Of a stretch of DNA of 48,416 bases, positions 11,717 to 22,677 are shown piece after piece. The translations under genes and the position numbers were made by a program. Each line of letters opens with the position of its first letter. The first letter of the stretch is position 1. Location of the stretch: positions 1 through 48,416 of the forward strand of contig CACYIR010000001.1 in NCBI GenBank assembly GCA_902774525.1. The letters are read 5' to 3'. The DNA comes from an uncultured Lachnospiraceae bacterium (GTDB lineage: Bacteria; Bacillota; Clostridia; Lachnospirales; Lachnospiraceae). The notes below the pieces were generated by a model. That model saw nothing but the letters and a program-made list of their open reading frames with translations, did not search any database and was not told where the DNA came from.

Positions 11717-12541
11717 TTAATTTAAAGGCACTTTTTTCTCTTTATCGGTAAGTGAAGAAACCGTTTTCTTTCTTATGGTCTCAAGCCTCTTAAATATGAA
11801 GGTTTCCACATCTTTTATTTTTTTGACCTTGGCCTGTTCAAACAGTTCCCCGTATATTTTTTTCATCAGTTCATTGGATACCGATCGTCTGGTCTTTTCC
11901 TGAGGCGGTCCGCAGAGCCTGAAGCGTTCTGCTGCAAGCAGACTGTTGAATGCTCTTTCTCCATACCAGGAAAACATTTCGGATACAAAGGATATTATTT
12001 CCTTCGTCTGTTCGTCTATAAGCTTATCAGGGGAAAGGGTAGAGTTACTGAAAAATACGGAGTTTTTAAAGCCTTCCGCCACTGTCTTATACGGTGAATT
12101 GCCGTTTCCTTTGGTGGGCTGATAAATATCGTCAAATACAGGCTTCCCTAAAAACTTTAAAGAAAGTATCTGGGACCATAACAGTATAACATCCAGATGT
12201 GCCTGTGAAAGTGTACCCGGACATGTATCGATAATGTACTGAGCTATAAGCAGTATCCTGCTTTCAAGTATCGGCTTATAAAGCTTTGTCAGGCTCTTCC
12301 TGTAGGCCACACCCGTTATCTTATCCCCGTTATTTATCAGCAGTTCCTGAAAACTGTTTTTATCGCGGTACAGCTGATAAAGCTTCTGGGTATATTCATT
12401 ATCGGGTATGGTCTTCATACCGGCATACAGCACTATGGTTGTTTCACCCCATCCCAAGAGCTTTGCAAGGGGCTTTTTTCCGATATCGTACATTTCGAGC
12501 AGATTTTTAAGTTCGTCCTTGTCGATACTCTTCTTTTCCAT
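11717..12541 (-). CDS. Hypothetical protein with an HTH-like N-terminus and a Panacea/DUF4065 (SocA-like antitoxin)-like central region; tentative
   Basis: The N-terminal segment KPLAKLLGWGETTIVLYAGMKTIPDNEY looks like a helix-turn-helix. HLDVILLWSQILSLKFLGKPVFDDIYQPTKGNGNSPYKTV resembles the Panacea core pattern (LQKLLYxAQ...G.PLF.E.F.AW..GPV). The call is by eye only. Confidence 0.4.
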   Translation of the reverse strand: MEKKSIDKDELKNLLEMYDIGKKPLAKLLGWGETTIVLYAGMKTIPDNEYTQKLYQLYRDKNSFQELLINNGDKITGVAYRKSLTKLYKPILESRILLIAQYIIDTCPGTLSQAHLDVILLWSQILSLKFLGKPVFDDIYQPTKGNGNSPYKTVAEGFKNSVFFSNSTLSPDKLIDEQTKEIISFVSEMFSWYGERAFNSLLAAERFRLCGPPQEKTRRSVSNELMKKIYGELFEQAKVKKIKDVETFIFKRLETIRKKTVSSLTDKEKKVPLN

Positions 12542-12557
12542 CCGTACCCCCTATGTG

Positions 12558-12572
12558 TATCCGGACCGGATA
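12558..12572. promoter_or_regulatory. Perfect 15-nt palindrome upstream of the Panacea-like gene (candidate operator)
   Basis: TATCCGGaCCGGATA at 12558-12572, 17-31 nt upstream of the ATG at 12541, inside the 80-nt gap between the two islet genes. Confidence 0.3.
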
Positions 12573-12621
12573 ACCCTGTCCGTTACGTACCCTGATATAC
12601 CTATCCCGTGGCTAAAGCAGA

Positions 12622-13278
12622 TCAGAATACATTTGCGATGATCCACGGAATACCGTATGAGATAAGACACATTATAACTGTTGCCATGAGCAATCCCAAT
12701 ATAACGGCCGGGAATGCCTTTTTAAACTTTATATTTAATAAGGAAGCGATAAGTGAACCGGTCCATGCTCCGGTGCCGGGAAGCGGGATACCGACAAACA
12801 GGACAAGTCCGATGAATTCATACTTTTTGATCTTTTCGCTCTTACCCATCGACTTATTTTCCAGCTTTTCAACTATGGGTTTAAAGAGCTTGGTCTTCTT
12901 AAGCCATGTAAATATCGGTGTGATAAGAAGCAGGATAAAAGGTACCGGTATGATATTGCCGGCTATACAGATACCTATCGCCTTAAAGAGCGGTATGCCT
13001 TTTATAGCTGCAATGATAAGACCTCCTCTAAGCTCTATAACGGGTACCATTGAGATTATAAAACATACCAGTTCGTCAGGCAGTCCCGAAAGCTTTCCGG
13101 CCAGCTTGCCTGCAAATGAATCATTTACCTCCTCTTCTGATTCATTTGAGATTTCGGCAGTCTCGGTTCCTGTTGTATTATCTTCTTTTTCAGAACTGCA
13201 TGCGGTCATTATAAAGACCGATAATGTCATTATCAGAAGGAGTACCATGATCCTTCCGGTTCTTTTGATAGTTATCAT
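12622..13278 (-). CDS. COG2426 / small-multidrug-export-like (PF06695-type) membrane protein with a lipoprotein-like N-terminal extension
   Basis: ORF 12622..13359. The ATG at 13278 follows GAGGAA. The N-terminus MITIKRTGRIMVLLLIMTLSVFIMTAC has a lipobox-like IMTAC, followed by an acidic linker. The core VPVIELRGGLIIAAIKGIP...GNIIPVPFILL...GIPLPGTGAWTGSL is typical of the family. Confidence 0.55.
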   Translation of the reverse strand: MITIKRTGRIMVLLLIMTLSVFIMTACSSEKEDNTTGTETAEISNESEEEVNDSFAGKLAGKLSGLPDELVCFIISMVPVIELRGGLIIAAIKGIPLFKAIGICIAGNIIPVPFILLLITPIFTWLKKTKLFKPIVEKLENKSMGKSEKIKKYEFIGLVLFVGIPLPGTGAWTGSLIASLLNIKFKKAFPAVILGLLMATVIMCLISYGIPWIIANVF

Positions 13279-13337
13279 TATTAATTCCTCAATTTCTTTA
13301 TGATTCTTCGCTTCTCTCAGAATGACGATATTTAAAA

Positions 13338-13370
13338 CAAAATAAAAGCCCCAAACCAAATGTTTGAGGC
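13338..13370 (-). terminator. Rho-independent terminator after tRNA-Arg
   Basis: On the minus strand, CCTCAAAC-attt-g-GTTTGGGG (one G-U pair) is followed by CTTTTATTTTGTTTT. Confidence 0.65.
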
Positions 13371-13373
13371 CTA

Positions 13374-13447
13374 TGTGTGTGACAAGATTCGAACTCGCGA
13401 CCTTCTGGTCCGTAGCCAGACGCTCTATCCAGCTGAGCTACACACAC
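13374..13447 (-). tRNA. tRNA-Arg (anticodon ACG)
   Basis: Reverse complement: GTGTGTG-TA-GCTC-AGCTGGATA-GAGC-G-TCTGG-CTACGGA-CCAGA-AGGTC-GCGAG-TTCGAAT-CTTGT-CACACAC-A. It folds as a full cloverleaf with the GTTCGAAT T-loop and an anticodon loop CT-ACG-GA. CCA is not encoded. Confidence 0.9.
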
Positions 13448-13471
13448 ATTCGTTTCGCAACGACATTAGAT

Positions 13472-13500
13472 ATATTACCTCAAAACCACATATATGTCAA
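13472..13500 (-). promoter_or_regulatory. Near-consensus sigma-A promoter of the tRNA-Arg gene
   Basis: On the minus strand: TTGACA (13495-13500), 17-nt spacer, TAATAT (13472-13477), about 25 nt upstream of the mature 5' end. Confidence 0.6.
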
Positions 13501-13565
13501 GCAGTTTTTAAATTATCTTTCACTTAACCTGCATATAAATGTATATGGTTGCGTATCCGGCATTC

Positions 13566-14318
13566 TTACTCCATGTCAAGTTCCACAGGACAATGATCGG
13601 AACCCATTATATCCGAGTGTATAACCGCATCCTTAAGCCTTCCTTTGAGCTTCCCGGACACAACAAAGTAGTCTATACGCCAGCCTGTATTCCTCTCCCT
13701 TGACTTAAACATATATGACCACCAGGAATAAGCTTCTTTTTTATCCGGATAAAAGTACCTGAAGGAATCGATATAACCGTTCTCAAGCACCCTGGTAAAG
13801 CACTCTCTTTCCCTGTCGGTAAAGCCTGCGTTCATATGGTTTGAATCGGGATTCTTAAGGTCGATCTCTTTATGTGCCACATTAAGGTCCCCGCAGTATA
13901 TCACCGGCTTCTTCTTTTCCAACCCTTTTATATAGGAAAGAAAATCTTTTTCCCATTCCATTCGGTAATCGATACGGGCAAGCTCACGCTGGGAATTGGG
14001 AACGTATACGTCTACAAAATAAAAATCCTTGTATTCCGCTGTGATTACTCTTCCCTCATGGTCATGCTCTTCTATATTTATGCCATATGTAACAGATACA
14101 GGTTCTTCTTTTGTAAATAAAGCAGTACCTGAGTATCCTTTTTTCTCAGCATAATTCCAATACTGATGATAACCTTCCAAGGGGAGTTCGATCTGTCCTT
14201 CGGAAAGCTTGGTCTCCTGTAGACAGAATATGTCAGCATCTATTTCCTTAAAGAAATCCATAAAGCCTTTTTGCATGCATGCTCTAAGTCCGTTTACATT
14301 CCATGATATGAATTTCAT
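13566..14318 (-). CDS. xth: Exodeoxyribonuclease III (AP endonuclease)
   Basis: MKFISWNVNGLRACMQKGFMDFFKEIDADIFCLQETK...GDLNVAHKEIDL...WRIDYF...GSDHCPV. These are canonical ExoIII/EEP motifs. Confidence 0.92.
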   Translation of the reverse strand: MKFISWNVNGLRACMQKGFMDFFKEIDADIFCLQETKLSEGQIELPLEGYHQYWNYAEKKGYSGTALFTKEEPVSVTYGINIEEHDHEGRVITAEYKDFYFVDVYVPNSQRELARIDYRMEWEKDFLSYIKGLEKKKPVIYCGDLNVAHKEIDLKNPDSNHMNAGFTDRERECFTRVLENGYIDSFRYFYPDKKEAYSWWSYMFKSRERNTGWRIDYFVVSGKLKGRLKDAVIHSDIMGSDHCPVELDME

Positions 14319-14348: not shown

Positions 14349-14376
14349 CGGGAAGAACTTTTAAAGGCTCTTCCCG
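14349..14376 (-). terminator. Probable terminator closing the xpaC-telA operon
   Basis: CGGGAAGA (14349-14356) pairs with TCTTCCCG (14369-14376), 16 nt downstream of the stop at 14392. The U-tract (TTAATTCT) is weak. Confidence 0.4.
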
Positions 14377-14391
14377 TATAATAGAAAAATC

Positions 14392-15390
14392 CTATCTTTC
14401 TTTTTTCAAAGGACCGCTTCTGTAGGATGAACTTCCGGGCTCATTCTCGAAGTAGTTGCTCTTTGCGCTTTCCTCAAGACCGCTTGTATTCGGTGCAGGT
14501 CTTGAACTCTGGTTCTGATAATTTCCGTATTGAACATTCTGGTTGTTCATATTGTTATTTGGTCTGTAATTTTGGTTGTTCCCGCCGCCGTACTGTACGT
14601 TCTGGTTATAACTGCCGCTGTTCGGAGCATATCCGTTATATCCGTTGTATCCGTTCTGTCCGGGACGTCCGCCCTGACCGCCCTGTACGTTTTCATAACG
14701 TCTCTGGTTATTGTTCTGGCGGGCGTTATTGTACTGACCGTTGTTGTATTGCTGATTGTAATTACCCTGACGGCCGTTATTATACTGCTGGTTGTTTCCG
14801 CTGTAATATCCGCCCTGCTGCCCGGTACGTGCCGCATCTCTGACATCTCCGGTCATGCTTGCATTGTAATTCTGGCCGTTATATCTTCCACCGTATCCTG
14901 CACTCATCCTGTCTGTTGAGCTGTAGGGATTGGCTCCGTGATTTACAGTAGAACTGTAGGGATTGGCCGAGGTATTGGGTCTGTTATTATTGTTAAACAG
15001 CTTTCCCATCTCGATACCGAGTTTGTTGGCTCCCCGGCCTACCTTTTCAGTGATCCTTTCGGCAGTCTGGCTCATCTTCTGGCTGAAACTGCCGTTGGCG
15101 GAATTAAATCCGTTGTTAACACCCTGTGCCGTCTGCTTCGGGCTCTCTATCTGAGGTCCGTTATACTGCTCTAAAAGCTTTTTTTCTTTTGAAGACTGTA
15201 TTGCTTTTCCGATACCGCATCCGGCCATCAACACTCCAGCTCCGACCAGGCCTCCGGCCACAGTCATCGCATGTTGAAACATTGAAGCATCCGTAAGCGC
15301 CGGGCTCAGTTTTACGGCACCTATTATGGTACAAGCGAGTATTGCGATCGCCACGCCCGTCTTCTGGAAAAATCTTTTTATCTTTCCCAC
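14392..15390 (-). CDS. Hypothetical membrane-anchored protein with a ~220-aa Q/N/G/Y-rich low-complexity (prion-like) region
   Basis: GTG start at 15390 after AAGGATGG. There are two N-terminal hydrophobic segments (GVAIAILACTIIGAV; VAGGLVGAGVLMAGCGIG). The rest reads ...GGYYSGNNQQYNNGRQGNYNQQYNNGQYNNARQNNNQ...NQNVQYGGGNNQNYRPNNNMNNQNVQYGNYQNQ. Confidence 0.6.
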   Translation of the reverse strand: MGKIKRFFQKTGVAIAILACTIIGAVKLSPALTDASMFQHAMTVAGGLVGAGVLMAGCGIGKAIQSSKEKKLLEQYNGPQIESPKQTAQGVNNGFNSANGSFSQKMSQTAERITEKVGRGANKLGIEMGKLFNNNNRPNTSANPYSSTVNHGANPYSSTDRMSAGYGGRYNGQNYNASMTGDVRDAARTGQQGGYYSGNNQQYNNGRQGNYNQQYNNGQYNNARQNNNQRRYENVQGGQGGRPGQNGYNGYNGYAPNSGSYNQNVQYGGGNNQNYRPNNNMNNQNVQYGNYQNQSSRPAPNTSGLEESAKSNYFENEPGSSSYRSGPLKKER

Positions 15391-15417
15391 TAACTATCCA
15401 TCCTTTTAAAAGATTCT

Positions 15418-16671
15418 TCAGCTCTTAAGCTCCATAAGCTTCTGCTTTAATTCGCCTTCGATCCTTCCGAGTTCCTGCTCGGCTGCTGCACGCTTAGCCT
15501 TGCCTTCGGTCTGGATCTTCATTACTTCGTCTAATGTGCTGATAAGATTCTCATTTGTAGTCTTTAATGTCTCAATATCTACTACAGATCTCTCTGCTTC
15601 CTTAGCAGTCTCGATAGTAGCCATTTTCAATGTCTCGGCATTCTTCTTTAAGAGCTCGTTTGTCATATTGGTAACTGCCGACTGAGCAGCTGTAGCCTGA
15701 CGTCCGTGTTCGATACCGAGTGCAAGTACCATCTGTGATTTCCACAGCGGGATCGTATTAACGATAGAGGACTGTATCTTTTCTACCATCAATGTATCAT
15801 TGTTCTGAAGCATTCTGGTCTGAGGACCCATCTGAATAGAGATCATACGGGTAAGTTCAAGATCATGAAGCTTTTTCTCAAAACGGTCACAAAGATTGGA
15901 GAAATCATTGTATGCCTGAGCATCTTCCTGTGCACCGGTCTCCTCTGCCTTCTTACGGAGCTCCTGAAGCTCATTTGCACGTACCTCGGCAAGTCTCTTC
16001 TTACCGGCAATGATATACATTGTAAGCTCTTTATAATACTTAAGGTTAAGATCGTACATCTGGTCAAAAAGGGCTATGTCCTTCATAAGTGTTACCTGAT
16101 GCTGCTCAAGCATTTCAACGATCTTATCCACATTGGCCTCAGCCTTTGTATAATTAGCCTTCATGGTGGCTACATCACGCTTTTTCTTCTGGAACCATCC
16201 TGCGATACCCTTCTTCTCGGGCTCGTCCAGGGTTTTCAGCTGAACAACCAGTGAAGAAAGTGTCTCGCCTATCTGACCGAGATCCTTAGTCTTAACACTG
16301 TTAAGTGCTGATTCCGAGAATGAAGCGATATGCTGCTGTGCTGCAGAACCATAGGTCATTACCATATTTGAATCGGAAATATCGATCTTGGATGCAAAGT
16401 CATTAACAATCGCCTTTTCCTCTTCGGTAAGCATGTCCTCGTTGATCTGAACGGGATCTGCTTCCTGCTGTGCCTGCTGACCGTTCTGCTTTTCAGCTTC
16501 AGGATTAAGTGTAAGTGTAGGTGCTGACGGAACAGCAGATACCTGTATTGCCTGAGGCTGCGCGGGAGCAGCTGCTGCCTGGGGCATCGAAGGTGCCTCA
16601 ATAGCTGCAGGTGCAGCGGGTGCTGCCATTGCATTAGGTTCAAGTGTTAATGAAGGTATTCCGTTATCCAT
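15418..16671 (-). CDS. telA: TelA/YaaN-family toxic anion resistance protein with a ~75-aa P/A/Q-rich N-terminal extension
   Basis: The ATG at 16671 follows GGAGGAA. The body (EEKAIVNDFASKIDISD...GSAAQQHIASFSE...IQSSIVNTIPLWKSQ...VDIETLKTTNENLISTLDEV...GELKQKL) is collinear with B. subtilis YaaN as I recall it. Confidence 0.85.
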   Translation of the reverse strand: MDNGIPSLTLEPNAMAAPAAPAAIEAPSMPQAAAAPAQPQAIQVSAVPSAPTLTLNPEAEKQNGQQAQQEADPVQINEDMLTEEEKAIVNDFASKIDISDSNMVMTYGSAAQQHIASFSESALNSVKTKDLGQIGETLSSLVVQLKTLDEPEKKGIAGWFQKKKRDVATMKANYTKAEANVDKIVEMLEQHQVTLMKDIALFDQMYDLNLKYYKELTMYIIAGKKRLAEVRANELQELRKKAEETGAQEDAQAYNDFSNLCDRFEKKLHDLELTRMISIQMGPQTRMLQNNDTLMVEKIQSSIVNTIPLWKSQMVLALGIEHGRQATAAQSAVTNMTNELLKKNAETLKMATIETAKEAERSVVDIETLKTTNENLISTLDEVMKIQTEGKAKRAAAEQELGRIEGELKQKLMELKS

Positions 16672-16803
16672 AAAATATTTCCTCCTCGTAAAACCTTTCG
16701 GATCTTTAGATAATATACCATATGGTTTTTATAAACAATAGTGCGGACTTTCTTAAATAGTCCTTAAATAATCTGTTACTTTTGCAAATTACGGAACTTT
16801 AAT

Positions 16804-17532
16804 TTATCTTAAGCCCGTGATCGCGTCATCTTTAAGCCCTTCCTGTGCAAGCATTCCCTCCATGACCTTGATCTCTGCGGAAATATCAAGCGCATCATCG
16901 GCATAAAGTGCATCCAGCTGCTTATCGAACGCTGCAAGAGAGGTGTCCATCATTTCTTCAACCTTACCCTTGGTACCGTCGATATTCATGCCGGAAATAC
17001 CGGTTTCATCCATCCTGTCATAAGCATTTAACAGCTTAAGAGTAGTAGGAAGATAGTAATTAAAGAACTTCCTGACCTGACTTTTCTTCGAAGGATTCTC
17101 CACGATAAAGTTCACTATCTTGGTAGTCACTTCTTCAAGATGGACTATCTGTCCGGATACTTTTTCATCCTCTATAGCTTTGTCCAGACGTCTCATTTCA
17201 GCTATAGCCTTTTCTTCTTCATCAAGAAGCGCATCTATGGATGCGTCTCCGGTTCTCGGTCTCTTCTTGATACCCTGATCCGGCTCGGGTTTCTTTTCCT
17301 CCTGCTTTACAGGTTCCGGTGCAGGTTCAGGCTTTTTGGAATTATCCTCCAGCTCAACCAGCTGCTTTGGCCAGAACATCTTACTGATGGCCCAGCCGCA
17401 GAATGAGGATAACCCGGCCAGAAACATACCGGATACCGTAGCCGGGAAAACAAGTACTCCGCCAACAAAAGCTGCTGCAGCCACATATATAGGTCCTGCC
17501 GAGCTCCAGGGGCTTTTTTTGAACGTTTTCAT
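16804..17532 (-). CDS. xpaC: XpaC-family (5-bromo-4-chloroindolyl phosphate hydrolysis, PF10112-type) membrane protein
   Basis: Two N-terminal TMs, then a P/E/K linker, then KKSQVRKFFNYYLPTTLKLLNAYDRMDE...AAFDKQLDALY. It lies directly upstream of telA, as xpaC-yaaN does in B. subtilis. Confidence 0.75.
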   Translation of the reverse strand: MKTFKKSPWSSAGPIYVAAAAFVGGVLVFPATVSGMFLAGLSSFCGWAISKMFWPKQLVELEDNSKKPEPAPEPVKQEEKKPEPDQGIKKRPRTGDASIDALLDEEEKAIAEMRRLDKAIEDEKVSGQIVHLEEVTTKIVNFIVENPSKKSQVRKFFNYYLPTTLKLLNAYDRMDETGISGMNIDGTKGKVEEMMDTSLAAFDKQLDALYADDALDISAEIKVMEGMLAQEGLKDDAITGLR

Positions 17533-17562
17533 CTAAAAGGTTACTCCTTTTTAACTACGGGA

Positions 17563-19032
17563 TTATCTTTTTAAGGTCTTATTTCCTTCATCTGATACCT
17601 TAAGAACATGATCTTCAGCGATGTACCACTTGATCTCGGTATCACCCTTCTTCTCAATTACCTCGAATTCATAGCCTTCTTTGTCAACAATGTTCTCGAT
17701 TCTCTTCAGGCCCATTCGTTCTTCATTGATGTAAATTACATAATCCTTAAATACGAAATCCTTTATGGCAAATCTGTCAGTATCATTTTCATATGTGTAA
17801 TTTACATACGGTGTATACTTGGAATATCTGATAAGTAAGGACTTTGTATTCTTATAAGGCAATGTGATCTGGTTAAGTATCTTAATTGTATTGATCAGTG
17901 AAACTGAAGACTGTTTCAAAGCCTGTTGATAATAATCTTCATTTCTTGCTTCAACACGTTTTGCTTCTGCATCCTTGAAAAGCAGACACTTGTTATACAG
18001 CTCGGCTGCTTCGGCATACTGTCCGTCTTTAAAGAGTCTGTCAGCCTCATTGTAATATACAATGTTCTTAACCTCTACCAGCTTGGCATTAAGCTCTTTG
18101 AAGCGCTCAACGTCAGCCTTGGGTGCCGGATCTGTAAGCCCCACATTATACATAATGTTCTTGATAGATGATTCTATCTTTGCCCAGTTGGTATATACCA
18201 CAAAACCAAGTACCGCTACCACTGCAAGCGGAATAAGTATTTTGAGGAAACCAAAGTAGTTTCTGACAACCTTGGGACCCTTCTGCTTCCTTGATGCTGT
18301 ACGTTCGTTCTTCGGACGTGCTGCAGGTGCGGGACGGCTTACGGTCGGACGACCGGGAGCAGGTGCTGTTACTGTAGCTGCAGGTGCTGTATACGGTGCC
18401 TCTTCTGCTGGAGCTGAAGATACATTGCTTGCTGCGGATGAATTTCCGCCCGGCATATATACGGCAGGGGCTGCAGGTGCTGCAGGTGCTACAGGCTTGG
18501 GTTCGGGTGCAGGTGTGTAAGATGCTGCAGTATTGGTAGCAGTCGACTTAACACCGGTATCGATCCTTGCACCGATAACCGTCTTGCCTTTGAGCGACTC
18601 CTTTGCCGTAGCCATACGTTTCTTCATATATGAAGCAACCAGTAAAGCCATGGCACTGATGCCGCCGCCGATAAGTACTACGGTAATGATAGCCTTAACT
18701 TTGGAATTGTTTGCTCCTACAATGATAAGTATCAAAGCAAGTACTGAGATCACGATTGCGGCAAAAGCAACTGCAGATGCGATAAGTGAGAATTTCTGAC
18801 ATGACAGATAATCCTTAACGTTCTTATTGCTCTTGCGTACTACTATTTCTTCAGCTGCTGCTATTTCCTCATCAGTACCTATCCTTGATATATTATTTAA
18901 TGTATCGTCGAGTATTTCGTTCAGAACCTGTCTTGTTTCATTATCATTTGCTGCATTCAGGGCATTTCGGGCAGCAATAAGTCTGAAATACAAGTGTTCA
19001 GATTCGCTCGAGAAAATTTCGTCTACTGTCAT
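17563..19032 (-). CDS. Hypothetical 3-TM protein with a P/A-rich linker and a C-terminal TPR-like/unknown domain
   Basis: The ATG at 19032 follows AGGCGGAG. TMs: FSLIASAVAFAAIVISVLALILIIV, AIITVVLIGGGISAMALLVASYM, FLKILIPLAVVAVLGFVVY. The linker is PAPEPKPVAPAAPAAPAVY...APAPGRPTVSRPAPAARP. I recognise no family. Confidence 0.6.
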   Translation of the reverse strand: MTVDEIFSSESEHLYFRLIAARNALNAANDNETRQVLNEILDDTLNNISRIGTDEEIAAAEEIVVRKSNKNVKDYLSCQKFSLIASAVAFAAIVISVLALILIIVGANNSKVKAIITVVLIGGGISAMALLVASYMKKRMATAKESLKGKTVIGARIDTGVKSTATNTAASYTPAPEPKPVAPAAPAAPAVYMPGGNSSAASNVSSAPAEEAPYTAPAATVTAPAPGRPTVSRPAPAARPKNERTASRKQKGPKVVRNYFGFLKILIPLAVVAVLGFVVYTNWAKIESSIKNIMYNVGLTDPAPKADVERFKELNAKLVEVKNIVYYNEADRLFKDGQYAEAAELYNKCLLFKDAEAKRVEARNEDYYQQALKQSSVSLINTIKILNQITLPYKNTKSLLIRYSKYTPYVNYTYENDTDRFAIKDFVFKDYVIYINEERMGLKRIENIVDKEGYEFEVIEKKGDTEIKWYIAEDHVLKVSDEGNKTLKR

Positions 19033-19056
19033 TTTGTACTCCGCCTTTCACTAAAC

Positions 19057-21630
19057 TTAATGCCTTGCCTCTTCTTCCCTTATCCTTACGTCGATCTCAC
19101 GCATGGAGTTCTCAATATCTTTTATTTTCTGGTTTGCGACCGAACGTCTCTCATCAACTGCCCTGCTCTTATCCTTTAATGCCTGCAGAGCTTCCTTCTT
19201 GGCAGAGATGACTGACTGGTTCTCTTCGATCGTCTCATTAAGTGCTGCGAGATCTTTATCAAATTTCTCTTTTACTTTCTGATGTTCTTCAATGGTAGCC
19301 TTGCTGTTTATCTGTGCCACCTCGAACTGGTTCTTTATTGAATCAAGTTCCTTCTCGGCATTTTCTCTGTCCTCGGTCTTCTGCTTATACAGCATAACCT
19401 TCTTACGTTTTCCGGACGCTGCTTTTTCTCTGAAAATAGCCTCGATCTCACCTGCAAGTTCTACTGCCGCGAAAGCAGTCCTTAAATCATCCTTAAGTTT
19501 CAGAAGTCTCTTCCTCTCAGTCTGTTCCTTATATGTGTATCTGTTCTCGGATTCCTGTGCCTGTGCCTCAAGATCCTTTTTCCTGCTCTGTGCATTGAAC
19601 AGTGTTGCGTTAACCTGGTTCTCAACCTGCATGAACTGGTTACGTTCAAGGTCGTACTGCTTTTCGATCTCAGCCTTCTCAAGCATACATGCGTTGATCT
19701 CGGATGCAACCTCAACTCTCTGCTGGATGAGCTTGTCCTTTTCGGCCTTTAACGATCCGACAGCCATATCCTCATGCATTCTCAGATCCTCTGCATGCTG
19801 TTTAAGCTGTGCATGACGTTTTTCTTCGTCCATCTTCTGATGCAGCTCTTCCTCACGACGTCTTTCTTCACGCTGTCTTAATTCATCACGGCGCTGTTTC
19901 TCTGCAAGACGTTCCGCTTCAACAGTCTCTGCCTTTGCTACAGCACTCTGGTTAAGCTCTTTGGAAGCCTGCTGCATGGGCTTTTCGGTAAGAATTGCAG
20001 GAGCGGGAGTATTGGGATTAAGAACTCTCTGGATCTCATACTGGGCTGCGGCAGCCTTAGCTGCTGCAATCCTTTCTGCTTCCCTTTGTGCACGCTCTGC
20101 AGCTTCTTTTTCAAGACGTGCTTTTTCTTCAGCCTCTCTTGCTGCTCTTTCGGCTGCGGCCTTAGCTGCCTTTTCTCTTGCAGACCTTTCGGCCTCGGCT
20201 TTTTCTCTGGCGATACGCTCTGCCTGAGCTTTCTCCTCGGCTTCTCTTTCTTCTTTAGCTATCCTTGCTGCGGCTGCCTTGGCTTTTTCTTCTGCTTCCT
20301 TTGCAAGTCTCTCGGCTTCTTCCTTAGCCTTTTCTTCGGCTTCTTCCTTAGCCTTTTCGGTCTCTATACGTTCCTTTTCGGCTCTCTCTATCTCTAAGCG
20401 GGCTGCTTCCTCTCTTGCCTTATCCGATGCCAGCTTTCTGGCTGCTTCAACCTTGGCAAGTGTAGCCTTTCTCTCTTCTTCGGCGCGCTTTGCTTCTTCC
20501 TTTGCCTTGCGGATAGCTTCCTCAGCCGCACGCTTTCCTGCTTCCTCAGCTGCTCTTTTCTCTTCCTCAACCCTGCGGATAGCTTCTTCAGCTGCTCTCT
20601 TTTGTTCTTCTTCCTTACGTCTTGCTTCTTCGGCTGCCTTTCTTTCTTCCTCAGCCTTGCGGGCTGCTTCTTCAGCTGCCTTACGCTCTGCTTCTTCTCT
20701 CGCCTTGCGCTCTTCCTCAGCCTTGCGGGCTGCTTCTTCAGCCGCCTTACGCTCTGCTTCTTCTCTCGCCTTGCGCTCTTCCTCAGCCTTGCGGGCTGCT
20801 TCTTCGGCTGCCTTGCGCTCTGCTTCTTCTCTCGCCTTGCGCTCTTCCTCAGCCTTGCGGGCCGCTTCTTCGGCTGCCTTACGTTCAGCTTCTTCTCTTG
20901 CCTTGCGCTCTTCCTCAGCCTTGCGGGCTGCCTCTTCAGCTGCTATCCTTTCGGCTTCCTTGCGCTCTTTTTCTTTTCTTTCAGCTTCGGCAGCTTCATT
21001 TCCGGCCCAGGTAATGGTGTCCAGCCATTCCTTTACGACCTTATCCATACTGCCTGTAGAATACTTATTGTTAAAAATTACACGAAACTTTAATACACGT
21101 CCGTTAAGCTCTATGAACACATAGTAATTGCAACACATGGACGACAAGACACGTCTAATAAAACCGCCTGTAATTTTTCCAAAAGAATATTCAAGAAGAG
21201 CTAACTTGGACTTGTTAACTCCACCCTTTACCATATCGTCATAAACGCCCTGAAGGATCTCGGCACCGCTCTTGCCGTTTGCGGTATCGTTACCGACATG
21301 GAGAAGCTCTACCGGCTTTTCCTCGTCAACATCGTTCAGAACGAATTCTTTTTTCTCATTCTCACTGGGAACCCATGCCAGGAAATCACGCTGCTGTCCG
21401 TTCTGGCTGACAGACTGCAGATTGATCTTGAAACCGTCAGGTATAGCAATCCTGTAGCCGGTTCCGAAAACGAGCTTGTTTTCTTTGAAAGTGAATTCCG
21501 CCACGTCGTTCTCATCCATCATTTCACCGAGTGAATCCTGGAAGGAATTCAATGCACGCAAAAGGTCGCCCAGCGACTTTCCGGAGTCTTTTGTGTTGTT
21601 CCCGGTGGCCTGATTTTCCGATCTGTCCAT
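19057..21630 (-). CDS. Hypothetical 857-aa protein: ~225-aa unknown globular N-domain, ~320-aa E/R/K/A-rich helix, ~300-aa heptad-type coiled coil
   Basis: ORF 19057..21699. The ATG at 21630 lies 6 nt after GGAGG (MDRSENQATGNN...). There is no TM and no signal peptide. The central region contains AAEEAARKAEEERKAREEAERK repeated about 4.5 times within a longer E/A/K/R tract. Confidence 0.7.
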   Translation of the reverse strand: MDRSENQATGNNTKDSGKSLGDLLRALNSFQDSLGEMMDENDVAEFTFKENKLVFGTGYRIAIPDGFKINLQSVSQNGQQRDFLAWVPSENEKKEFVLNDVDEEKPVELLHVGNDTANGKSGAEILQGVYDDMVKGGVNKSKLALLEYSFGKITGGFIRRVLSSMCCNYYVFIELNGRVLKFRVIFNNKYSTGSMDKVVKEWLDTITWAGNEAAEAERKEKERKEAERIAAEEAARKAEEERKAREEAERKAAEEAARKAEEERKAREEAERKAAEEAARKAEEERKAREEAERKAAEEAARKAEEERKAREEAERKAAEEAARKAEEERKAAEEARRKEEEQKRAAEEAIRRVEEEKRAAEEAGKRAAEEAIRKAKEEAKRAEEERKATLAKVEAARKLASDKAREEAARLEIERAEKERIETEKAKEEAEEKAKEEAERLAKEAEEKAKAAAARIAKEEREAEEKAQAERIAREKAEAERSAREKAAKAAAERAAREAEEKARLEKEAAERAQREAERIAAAKAAAAQYEIQRVLNPNTPAPAILTEKPMQQASKELNQSAVAKAETVEAERLAEKQRRDELRQREERRREEELHQKMDEEKRHAQLKQHAEDLRMHEDMAVGSLKAEKDKLIQQRVEVASEINACMLEKAEIEKQYDLERNQFMQVENQVNATLFNAQSRKKDLEAQAQESENRYTYKEQTERKRLLKLKDDLRTAFAAVELAGEIEAIFREKAASGKRKKVMLYKQKTEDRENAEKELDSIKNQFEVAQINSKATIEEHQKVKEKFDKDLAALNETIEENQSVISAKKEALQALKDKSRAVDERRSVANQKIKDIENSMREIDVRIREEEARH
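20649..20945 (-). repeat. Coding tandem repeat, 66-nt unit x ~4.5 copies
   Basis: Units start at 20649, 20715, 20781, 20847 and 20913. The first three differ by 1-3 nt, and the differences between them that I checked are synonymous. Each unit encodes a 22-aa block AAEEAARKAEEERKAREEAERK. Confidence 0.9.
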
Positions 21631-21720
21631 ACTTAACCTCCATGCTGTTTTTTCCAGCTTTAAAAAGCACGAAATATGACAAAAAACAATACCCCACATT
21701 ATTTTTTATCATTCTATACT

Positions 21721-21749
21721 ATTATACACTTATTTGTTTTTAAAATCAA
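21721..21749 (-). promoter_or_regulatory. Consensus-like sigma-A promoter of the five-gene xpaC-telA operon
   Basis: On the minus strand: TTGATT (21744-21749), 17-nt spacer, TATAAT (21721-21726), about 90 nt upstream of the ATG at 21630. Confidence 0.6.
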
Positions 21750-21765
21750 CAAAAATCAATAAAAA

Positions 21766-22677
21766 TCAACCTTTTTCCAATAATTTCTTTCTTCCTTCAA
21801 GGAAATACCATGCAATCCCGCTTACAACAGGCACAACAAACAGTAAAACCGCGTTCTCCTGAACCCATGCAGGCAGCAATGTAAGCAGAAAATTAAACCC
21901 GTTGAACATGGCATGGAAAATGATCGAAGGTATTATCGAACCGTACTTATAAGCGACATAAGCCATAAAAAGCCCCATAACACCGGCATATATGCCCTGG
22001 ACTACATTCAGATGGAATATACCGAAATATATAGCCGAAATGAGTATTGCAAGTACCGGAGCCATTGATTTTTTAAGCCTTGTGAGAATGATACCCCTCA
22101 TGATGCACTCTTCATTTATGGGAGCCAGCACTACGGTCAGGATTATCACTTTCGCACTGACATTGTTCATCCCGGCATCTTCCATAAGCTCATTGTATTT
22201 TTCCATGGAAGCAGGACTTACAAAGTCTATGATCGCCACTACAAAAAAAGTTATGTAATAAAGCGCGACAGCCGCAAAAAACAGACCGGCGAGAATATCG
22301 GGCTTAATGCATTTTCTGCAGGTTGCCTTAAGATCGGCAAGTCTGTATCCCCTGCAGTATACTTTTCTGTACCATATCACTGCCACTATGAGTGAAACAA
22401 GAGTCGCAACAAAAGATACCTGCGTTGTGTCGAGCGATTCCAGGATTTCGGCCGTCCGCTCCATATCCGAAAGCCCCGGATCAAGATCCGCGCCCTGCTC
22501 CCTTATCTTTGCTATGATAAAAGGGATCATCACGATCATCTGGATCACAAGGAACGCGATCATTATCAGGAAGCACACCAATGCTTCAAGAGCAGGATTT
22601 TTGTTGTCCCTGTACTGTTTCGGGACATACCGCTGTTCCCCATCCTGCATGATATTGTTATTTTCGTTTTCCTGCAT
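21766..22677 (-). CDS. CPBP-family intramembrane glutamic endopeptidase (CAAX protease / Abi-like)
   Basis: Multi-TM protein carrying the three family motifs: PINEECIMRG (EExxxR), YFGIFHL (FxxxH) and FHAMFNG (HxxxN). Confidence 0.8.
   Translation of the reverse strand: MQENENNNIMQDGEQRYVPKQYRDNKNPALEALVCFLIMIAFLVIQMIVMIPFIIAKIREQGADLDPGLSDMERTAEILESLDTTQVSFVATLVSLIVAVIWYRKVYCRGYRLADLKATCRKCIKPDILAGLFFAAVALYYITFFVVAIIDFVSPASMEKYNELMEDAGMNNVSAKVIILTVVLAPINEECIMRGIILTRLKKSMAPVLAILISAIYFGIFHLNVVQGIYAGVMGLFMAYVAYKYGSIIPSIIFHAMFNGFNFLLTLLPAWVQENAVLLFVVPVVSGIAWYFLEGRKKLLEKG

Follow-up and report, generated by a model that had tools for sequence, protein, structure and literature searches.

A lineage-specific five-gene block around the xpaC-telA pair in an uncultured rumen Lachnospiraceae bacterium

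The stretch of DNA analyzed here, referred to as the window, comprises 48,416 nucleotides of contig CACYIR010000001.1 (assembly GCA_902774525.1) from an uncultured Lachnospiraceae bacterium. It carries five consecutive genes on the minus strand, between positions 14392 and 21630, in the order P1-P2-xpaC-telA-P5, where P1, P2 and P5 stand for genes 1, 2 and 5. Coordinates are positions in the whole window, and L-numbers designate the loci of relatives. We consider it somewhat more probable than its opposite (about 0.55) that these genes constitute a real operon in an uncultured lineage of rumen Lachnospiraceae, and that this operon is a lineage-specific elaboration of a Clostridial envelope-stress cluster, xpaC-telA-tpm. 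The preliminary description of the block had placed three proteins of no recognizable family next to XpaC and TelA. That number is reduced to two, P1 and P2, and we infer their link to TelA from adjacency within a narrow clade.

The features of the preliminary description were all recovered at their positions. The intergenic gaps, in the order of transcription, are 24, 30, 132 and 27 nt, and a Shine-Dalgarno-like motif precedes each of the five genes. The proposal of a tight block behind a single promoter is in agreement with this organization and with the related genomes, in which the genes are kept together as a block. The composition of the region gives no sign of foreign DNA apart from a repeat-driven skew within P1.

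The xpaC-telA pair and its third gene

TelA matches the toxic anion resistance family of Pfam (PF05816) with 410.5 bits against a cut-off of 30 (E = 6e-123), covering positions 1–331 of a 332-position profile, and also PHROG 5890, "tellurite resistance" (E = 1e-60). XpaC matches PF10112 with 69.8 bits against a cut-off of 29.8 (E = 3.8e-19). Two transmembrane (TM) segments had been ascribed to XpaC; a crude scan shows one strongly hydrophobic segment (residues 10–28), and the second, weaker one (about residues 33–54) is discerned by eye only. No sequence relatives of TelA were found in the PDB, and none of the five proteins matched the PspA/IM30 or ESCRT-III families (PF04012 and PF03357) at E ≤ 0.1. 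In a census of 80 telA loci from GTDB, approximately 35 from Lachnospiraceae and 45 from Oscillospiraceae, xpaC lies directly 5' of telA in nearly every case. Relatives of the window's TelA are 66–97 % identical over the best aligned segment. The P/A-rich N-terminal region of TelA (residues 1–75; 16450–16671) contains two copies of a P-[ST]-LTL-[EDN]-P motif (PSLTLEPN ... PTLTLNPE). It is kept in the inspected Lachnospiraceae relatives, L014 and L015 among them, and may represent a docking peptide.

In Bacillus subtilis, xpaC-yaaN belongs to the core sigmaW regulon (PMC3498285). A YycG mutation up-regulates xpaC and telA in Enterococcus faecium, where deletion of xpaC lowers the minimum inhibitory concentration of daptomycin 8-fold and relocates anionic lipid domains, in both cases only if telA is intact (PMC6811118). 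A Listeria telA mutant shows raised nisin sensitivity, according to Collins 2010 as cited in PMC12791056. TelA has been proposed to form sub-membrane structures, and is found in Ter and phage contexts (PMC7824862). The preliminary description had suggested a membrane-associated module responding to envelope stress or to phage. The first of these two roles fits the published work on XpaC and TelA. The second received no support from any test; in PADLOC-DB 2.0, no defence match of the five proteins was better than E = 0.02, all matches being short and below significance.

The third gene of the cluster is represented in the window by P5, which has no match in Pfam, NCBIfam, PADLOC or PHROG and lacks the TPM domain (PF04536). 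P5 can nevertheless no longer be regarded as a protein of no recognizable family, as its TM segments are homologous to those of a TPM-type protein encoded downstream of telA. A TPM-type gene follows telA in 55 of the 80 loci (Lachnospiraceae and Oscillospiraceae), either directly (48 loci) or as the second gene, past a small intervening gene (7 loci). The remaining loci have a P5-type gene (9), neither type (14) or a contig end (2) at this place. In the TPM-type proteins, two TM segments enclose the TPM domain (PF04536, Pfam), and the tail that follows is rich in Gly/Ser/Arg or in Asn/Gly. When the 6070 open reading frames (ORFs) of the compared loci were searched with a profile of P5 residues 1–75, nearly all of the approximately 37 matches beyond the P5 family proved to be genes immediately after telA (E from 4e-10 to about 1e-2). 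The TPM-type protein of L019 matches P5 at its first (residues 2–29) and second (residues 234–276) TM segments, with the TPM domain in between; the two TM segments are separated by about 200 residues in L019, compared with some 10–15 in P5. P5 and the TPM proteins of the sister clade also have an NPYS tail motif in common. The P5 tail is cytosolic, contains the short motifs NPYSS...DRMSAGYGG and NYFxNEPGSSSYRSGPLKK, which are conserved, and is rich in N (20 %), G (14 %), Q (10 %) and Y (9 %). P5 retains the flanking parts of the TPM architecture, that is, the TM1 signature, the TM2 segment, the low-complexity tail and the position after telA.

Because both TM segments match, the gene occupies the same position and the TPM domain is gone, P5 is a TPM gene from which the outer domain was deleted. 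Its sequence identifies P5 as a descendant of a TPM-type gene that is not itself a TPM-domain protein, and this origin implies that TelA/XpaC already has a widespread third partner. Seven Oscillospiraceae loci (L040, L049, L067, L068, L082, L083 and L087) carry a gene for a single-TM protein of 170–190 residues between telA and the TPM gene. In L083 this protein belongs to the LemA family (PF04011, above the cut-off), which gives the order xpaC-telA-lemA-tpm, and in L040 it has no Pfam match. No paper linking TPM or LemA proteins to TelA was found in the searchable literature.

Architecture of P1 and P2

For P1 and P2, the earlier assessment as proteins of no recognizable family holds, since neither has a match in Pfam, NCBIfam, PADLOC or PHROG. 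The architectures also agree with those described before: P1 without TM segments, P2 with three TM segments and a P/A-rich linker, and P5 with two TM segments and an N/G/Q/Y-rich tail. The distribution of K and R residues in P2 indicates an N-in, C-out topology. An AlphaFold2 (AF2) model of P2 built on 27 sequences has long helices at residues 70–106, 109–147 and 259–296, a region of low confidence at residues 160–261 (predicted local distance difference test, pLDDT, < 50) and an outer domain with pLDDT > 90. The linker is present and P/A-rich in close relatives only. A comparison of the predicted P2 fold with the PDB gave a best E-value of 0.26 and weak TPR-like matches only.

The two ends of P2 evolve in a very different manner. 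Mean pairwise identity over the 27 sequences is 0.85 in the cytosolic head and 0.40 in the outer domain (residues 336–448). Compared with L089, the flanking DNA of the window is approximately 90 % identical on both sides, with zero nucleotide similarity across P2 residues 304–448 or thereabouts, and the outer domain is likewise exchanged for unrelated-looking sequence in comparisons with the L094 and L009 strains. As judged from these alignments, the exposed part of P2 (about residues 304–448) is hypervariable and undergoes cassette-like replacement between strains that are about 90 % identical, a mosaic pattern that suggests recombination or diversifying selection. A resemblance of the P2 head to TelA residues 340–400, approximately, was considered and rejected: outside the family, the hidden Markov model of the head matches TelA alone, with E = 0.06–0.8, and hhalign gives E = 0.06 with a probability of 0.9 %. 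The likeness is absent from the full-length comparison, and hhalign found no paralogy among the five families.

P1 has neither a TM segment nor a signal peptide. Its head (residues 1–215) is predicted to adopt a PsbP/Mog1/DUF1795-like fold, on the basis of a model that was good in one of five runs and with no Pfam sequence-profile match. A Foldseek search of the PDB with this model returned PsbP (1v2b, E = 1.7e-4, probability 1.0), with TM-scores of 0.41–0.57 to PsbP and others, and also matched BT_1490, Apa, Tsi3 and SciW/EagT6. Among viral structures, the matches were limited to phage lipoproteins that share the general fold, which is uninformative. An exhaustive profile search with the head yielded 33 matches, the remote ones with E from 1e-20 to 1e-6. 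The remote relatives share the pattern GYxIxIPDGF...RDFxAW.P...NYHC...QFRxIFNKxYS...WLxT and belong to no Pfam family. In several of them, the domain is followed by coiled coils or by apparent winged-helix (winged helix-turn-helix) segments. Relatives of this kind (protein P0055 of L104, P0052 of L103 and P0057 of L105) are located in a region resembling an integrative and conjugative element (ICE) with TraG, M23 peptidase, ArdC-N and TTRAP, or come after RNase_T and a UvrD helicase, or after SbcCD-like genes. The remote relatives form an unnamed domain family, possibly associated with mobile elements or conflict.

The middle part of P1 (residues 216–545) is composed of E, R and K (59 %) and A (30 %), with 6 % hydrophobic residues and 0.42 i/i+4 pairs of opposite charge per residue. 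The long E/R/K run, the i/i+4 charge pattern and the near absence of a hydrophobic seam are those of an ER/K single alpha-helix (SAH), and the spacer would be about 50 nm long if fully helical. It is partly built of five copies of a 66-bp repeat with 92 % identity. The spacer varies in length with repeat copy number, and the whole protein measures 784–981 residues among relatives. The C-terminal coiled coil, by contrast with the spacer, has 24 % hydrophobic residues; its mean column identity is 84 % over 10 species. Apart from the orthologues, no relative of it was detected. Nothing significant was found for it among PDB sequences (a single match, E = 0.049), and its interpretation as a TelA paralogue was rejected (hhalign probability 0.1 %). 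A word-indexed homologue search with the P1 C-terminus returned a single match despite the many orthologues, so this type of search under-samples P1.

Transcription unit, distribution and alternative explanations

The consensus-like promoter claimed for the block, TTGATT-17-TATAAT, is present at 21749–21721. Promoter-like sites as a class do not exceed chance in this region (24, against 15.3 ± 4.9 in shuffled sequence). The P1 promoter is credible because its −35/−10 pair is conserved upstream of P1 in orthologous loci (L001, L006, L007, L009–L011, L016 and L096), and even L014, with a different upstream flank, has a TTGATT-17-TATACT version. The TTGATTTT repeats next to it, of which two copies are kept in relatives, possibly represent a regulator site or an UP-like element. 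The stem and the ribosome-binding site (RBS) of the leader are conserved as well. An Rfam search of the leader, repeats and spacers matched nothing but the tRNA. The P1 start is placed at the ATG at 21630 and not at 21699, since GGAGG lies 7 nt upstream and all orthologues begin with MD(R/N/K). Promoter capture, in which P1-P2 would have been inserted behind an ancestral xpaC promoter, is not supported, as the TTGATTTT promoter is not found 5' of xpaC in loci without P1-P2. There is no terminator between the upstream CPBP gene and the P1 promoter.

The downstream boundary is less sharp. A hairpin had been proposed to close the unit at 14349–14376; it exists, and the 77-nt stretch between P5 and xth folds with −22.2 kcal/mol (z = −2.8), but it does not close the unit clearly, as xth is coupled to P5 in most relatives. 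The hairpin has no U-tract (its tail reads TTAATTCTG) and is absent from the list of the terminator scan, which found no canonical terminator between P5 and xth in the window. The gap between the two genes is −4 to 13 nt in seven of the 11 relatives with both genes (L001, L006, L010, L011, L013, L016 and L096), in some cases with the stop codon of P5 overlapping the start codon of xth. The window, L007, L008 and L009 have a spacer of 73–152 nt carrying the hairpin, followed by a proper T-run (TTTTTT) in L007 alone, and the hairpin is absent where xth abuts P5. These short or overlapping gaps, and the single proper T-run among the hairpin loci, make it probable that xth is reached by read-through or belongs to the unit as its sixth gene; in most relatives, its translation is coupled to that of P5.

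A rumen metagenome contig (JAEEGK010000274.1, L088) has 99–100 % protein identity across the block, and the closest GTDB genome is a metagenome-assembled Lachnospiraceae genome from water-buffalo rumen, with a TelA 97 % identical. Searches with the P1 head and with P2 retrieved 12 and 34 proteins, respectively, and every one of them comes from a Lachnospiraceae assembly of rumen or gut origin. Six GTDB species loci of sufficient length (L009–L012, L014 and L016) contain all five genes. The metagenome loci retrieved with the P2 profile have P1 upstream in 13 of 13 cases and XpaC downstream in all but two truncated contigs, and every contig long enough has the same order, P1-P2-xpaC-telA-P5. In most relatives, synteny extends over about 20 kb (rnc-smc-ftsY-CPBP-[block]-xth-Sm_multidrug_ex-orf-bipA), with SMC 67–84 % and FtsY 94–98 % identical, which corresponds roughly to the genus level. 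L014 has the five genes and the promoter in another setting, with glycosyltransferases as the upstream flank and without xth. The three partners are conserved beside xpaC-telA within the clade; P1 and P2 are restricted to it, next to xpaC-telA only, and P5 is an altered form of the common TPM gene. The TPM outer domain was lost and P1-P2 were gained in the same clade, which hints at linked remodelling, but this represents only one evolutionary event.

In an elaborated xpaC-telA-tpm cluster, XpaC and P5 would be small membrane anchors keeping TelA, which is soluble and helical, beneath the membrane, an arrangement that matches the sub-membrane structure proposed for TelA. P2 would cross the membrane, with its fast-changing TPR-like/beta domain on the wall side and its almost invariant head in the cytosol. 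P1 might dock on the P2 head, or on TelA/XpaC, via its invariant N-terminal helix and PsbP-like domain, with the ER/K helix of about 50 nm and the conserved coiled coil serving as a long strut or tether. Upon envelope damage, the whole would stabilize or reorganize the membrane. The xth gene is probably co-transcribed and functionally unrelated.

Several observations weigh against the participation of P1 and P2, and they favour an alternative that we regard as possible, if doubtful, namely that P1-P2 is an independent two-gene module for surface sensing or of cytoskeletal nature, inserted between the CPBP gene and xpaC in one ancestor and sharing the promoter without working with TelA/XpaC. 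The distribution of the pair is narrow. L015 has xpaC-telA-P5 behind an ABC-F gene, without P1 and P2, and no P1- or P2-like gene occurs near telA in the other 65 loci, where the upstream neighbours are unrelated. In a TelA+XpaC tree, L014 and L015 lie at the unresolved base of the clade, so that a gain of P1-P2 after the L015 split and a loss in L015 are equally possible. Because P1 and P2 are confined to relatives of roughly genus level that share about 20 kb of synteny, their co-occurrence with xpaC-telA carries little statistical weight, and the adjacency could be inherited and not selected. The P1 promoter differs from the sequence 5' of xpaC in loci without P1-P2. The readable contexts of the remote P1-head relatives are of the mobile-element or nuclease type, with none near telA, and the head model itself, from an alignment of 11 sequences, reached a pLDDT of 78.8 and a pTM of 0.74 in the one good model of five. 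Lastly, an internal promoter could lie in the 132 nt that precede telA. The candidate site there, TTGTTT...TGGTATATT, was not listed by the promoter scan; the spacer has no stable structure (z = 0.23), and its length varies from 22 to 145 nt among relatives. Against an independent module, the pair is never found apart from xpaC-telA in 19 loci, P2 and xpaC are only 30 nt apart with no terminator between them, and the block is intact in L014 despite the changed upstream flank. Moreover, the pair and the loss of the TPM ectodomain are found in the same clade, and this coincidence suggests that the module was remodelled in a linked way.

A bolder version of the elaborated cluster would make the block a single trans-envelope machine. 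The P2 outer domain would detect, or be targeted by, an antagonist such as a phage, a bacteriocin or wall damage, the P2 head would signal to P1, and the P1 rod and coiled coil would arrange TelA as a sub-membrane lattice, with XpaC and the TPM-less P5 as anchors, the TPM outer domain having been swapped for that of P2. We judge this to be unlikely as a whole. If true, such a machine would provide the first defined physical partner set and a sensing input for the TelA family.

A role in defence against phages or bacteriocins, with the P2 outer domain as sensor or decoy, P1 as relaying scaffold and TelA/XpaC as membrane effector by analogy with Ter, is quite improbable. The cassette-like exchange of the P2 ectodomain is of a kind typically found in surface proteins subject to antagonistic selection, and the Ter/phage contexts of TelA (PMC7824862), the PHROG 5890 match, the ICE-like and nuclease-associated settings of P1-head relatives and the CPBP/Abi-type protease gene directly upstream point in the same direction. 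The five proteins, however, have no PADLOC family match above noise, the block contains no nuclease, NTPase or toxin-like effector, and the published TelA/XpaC phenotypes concern membrane-active antibiotics. The block also lies in a core housekeeping region (rnc-smc-ftsY ... xth-bipA) and not in a defence island.

That the five genes are mere co-directional neighbours in a same-strand run (rnc-smc-ftsY-CPBP-...-xth-tRNA) with several internal starts, as the missing terminators on either side, the 132-nt gap and the chance-level promoter matches might suggest, can practically be set aside in view of three internal gaps out of four of 24–30 nt, each with an RBS, a conserved P1 promoter that travels with the block and an invariant gene order in all P2-carrying loci.

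Table 1. Positions of the genes, protein regions and regulatory features of the block and its downstream flank in the window.
Feature	Position	Strand	Description
Three direct TTGATTTT repeats, 10-bp period	21742–21770	−	Tandem Repeats Finder: period 10, 2.9 copies; overlap the −35 hexamer
Sigma-70-type promoter TTGATT-17-TATAAT	21721–21749	−	Top-scoring site of the region (10/12)
5' untranslated leader	21631–21720	−	Stem GCTG-A6 loop-CAGC at 21644–21658, then RBS GGAGG at 21637–21641
P1	19057–21630	−	857 aa, ATG start at 21630; longest ORF runs 19057–21699
P1 residues 1–215	20986–21630	−	Invariant N-terminal helix (16–36) SGKSLGDLLRALNSFQDSLGE and predicted alpha/beta domain
P1 residues 216–545	19996–20985	−	ER/K SAH-type spacer, about 330 residues
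P1 residues 546–857	19060–19995	−	Short non-helical linker, then heptad-type coiled coil of about 270 residues (586–857)
P2	17563–19032	−	489 aa
P2 residues 1–78	18799–19032	−	Nearly invariant cytosolic helical head; AF2: three helices (1–69) and a short strand
P2 residues 79–296	18145–18798	−	TM hairpin, disordered P/A-rich cytosolic linker (160–250), third TM helix
P2 residues 297–489	17566–18144	−	Extracytoplasmic; TPR-like helices (308–404) and eight-strand beta part (412–488)
xpaC	16804–17532	−	242 aa; membrane-anchored, cytosolic helical domain; PF10112
xpaC-telA spacer	16672–16803	−	132 nt; TTGTTT...TGGTATATT, candidate weak internal promoter, read from sequence
telA	15418–16671	−	417 aa; PF05816
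P5	14392–15390	−	332 aa, GTG start
Stem-loop between P5 and xth	14349–14376	−	Weak or partial terminator at best
xth (exodeoxyribonuclease III)	13566–14318	−	Follows P5; probably co-transcribed
tRNA-Arg(ACG)	13373–13448	−	Directly downstream of xth; own promoter TTGACA-17-TAATAT 13500–13472; clear intrinsic terminator 13372–13346

Some neighbouring genes deserve mention. The gene directly upstream of the block (21766–22677, minus strand) encodes a CPBP/Rce1-like intramembrane protease (PF02517, E = 4e-22). It is fast-evolving, with 40–62 % identity where the neighbouring FtsY is 94–98 % identical. Downstream, a 274-aa protein and an Sm_multidrug_ex (PF06695) membrane protein (11717–12541 and 12622–13359, both on the minus strand) keep their synteny with the block in L014 and in almost all other relatives. 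The 274-aa protein is 51–70 % identical in relatives, and the two may belong to the same neighbourhood as the block. The TTG start at 13359 that the ORF list gives for the gene after tRNA-Arg overlaps the terminator of the tRNA and is probably too far upstream. In L014, P5 is followed not by xth but by a gene (12295–13521) whose product is a membrane protein of the DUF6709 family (PF20456, E = 1e-11). The long tail of this protein is rich in S and N, so that the cluster of L014 has a further membrane protein with a low-complexity tail.

Significance and relation to known systems

TelA and XpaC affect nisin, daptomycin and tellurite resistance in pathogens. The comparison of loci provides a common third partner, a TPM-domain membrane protein that usually accompanies xpaC-telA across Lachnospiraceae and Oscillospiraceae, sometimes with LemA in between. 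The part that involves P1 and P2 concerns an uncultured, narrow lineage. The xpaC-telA-tpm arrangement also occurs in cultured strains (Pseudoflavonifractor capillosus ATCC 29799, Flintibacter and Lachnospiraceae YSD2013), and the xpaC-telA-(lemA)-tpm cluster, being testable there, may prove the more useful lead. The natural variant described here, with the TPM domain discarded and two proteins added, points to dispensable parts, and its conserved elements, the invariant P2 head, the P1 N-terminal helix and the P5 tail motifs, suggest candidate interaction surfaces.

The xpaC-telA-(lemA)-tpm clusters are among the closest counterparts of the block. The genes stand in the same order, and the product of the third shares the N-terminal signature K-F/I-F-Q/K-K-x-G/W-V-A, spans the membrane twice and carries a cytosolic tail of low complexity. 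By contrast, P5 lacks the extracytoplasmic TPM domain (PF04536) of approximately 200 residues, its tail is N/Q/Y-rich and not G/S/R-rich, and those clusters contain neither P1 nor P2. The xpaC-telA or xpaC-yaaN pairs of other Firmicutes (B. subtilis, Listeria monocytogenes lmo1966–1967 and E. faecium) consist of the same two genes in the same order, one product being membrane-anchored and the other soluble and helical. Here the pair is part of a longer unit, in which two further genes precede it and one follows, and the promoter is sigma-70-like with no sigmaW-type motif, unlike that of the sigmaW-controlled xpaC-yaaN of B. subtilis. In the kilA/tellurite-resistance operon of the IncP plasmid RK2, klaA-klaB(telA)-klaC(telB), TelA is also encoded with a membrane protein and another partner. 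The partner proteins differ, and RK2 represents a plasmid setting in a proteobacterial host.

Further parallels are functional or structural. In the Psp and Lia systems (PspA with PspB/C, and LiaH with LiaI), small membrane anchors recruit a soluble protein made entirely of helices, and the system is induced by membrane-active agents or protects against them. The TelA/XpaC block can be likened to Psp/Lia in function, with no sequence relationship. The predicted P1 head resembles the alpha/beta sandwich of Mog1/PsbP/DUF1795-like proteins (PsbP, Tsi3, the Eag/SciW chaperones, LpqN, Apa and BT_1490), folds that are generally protein-binding modules. It differs from them in its low identity (8–14 %), its cytosolic location and its fusion to a helical rod of about 600 residues, and its sequence relatives form an unnamed family of their own. 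ER/K SAH spacers are known from myosin VI and X, caldesmon and other proteins. P1 residues 216–545 appear similar in composition and in their i/i+4 charge pattern, and at about 330 residues the stretch is unusually long for a bacterial protein.

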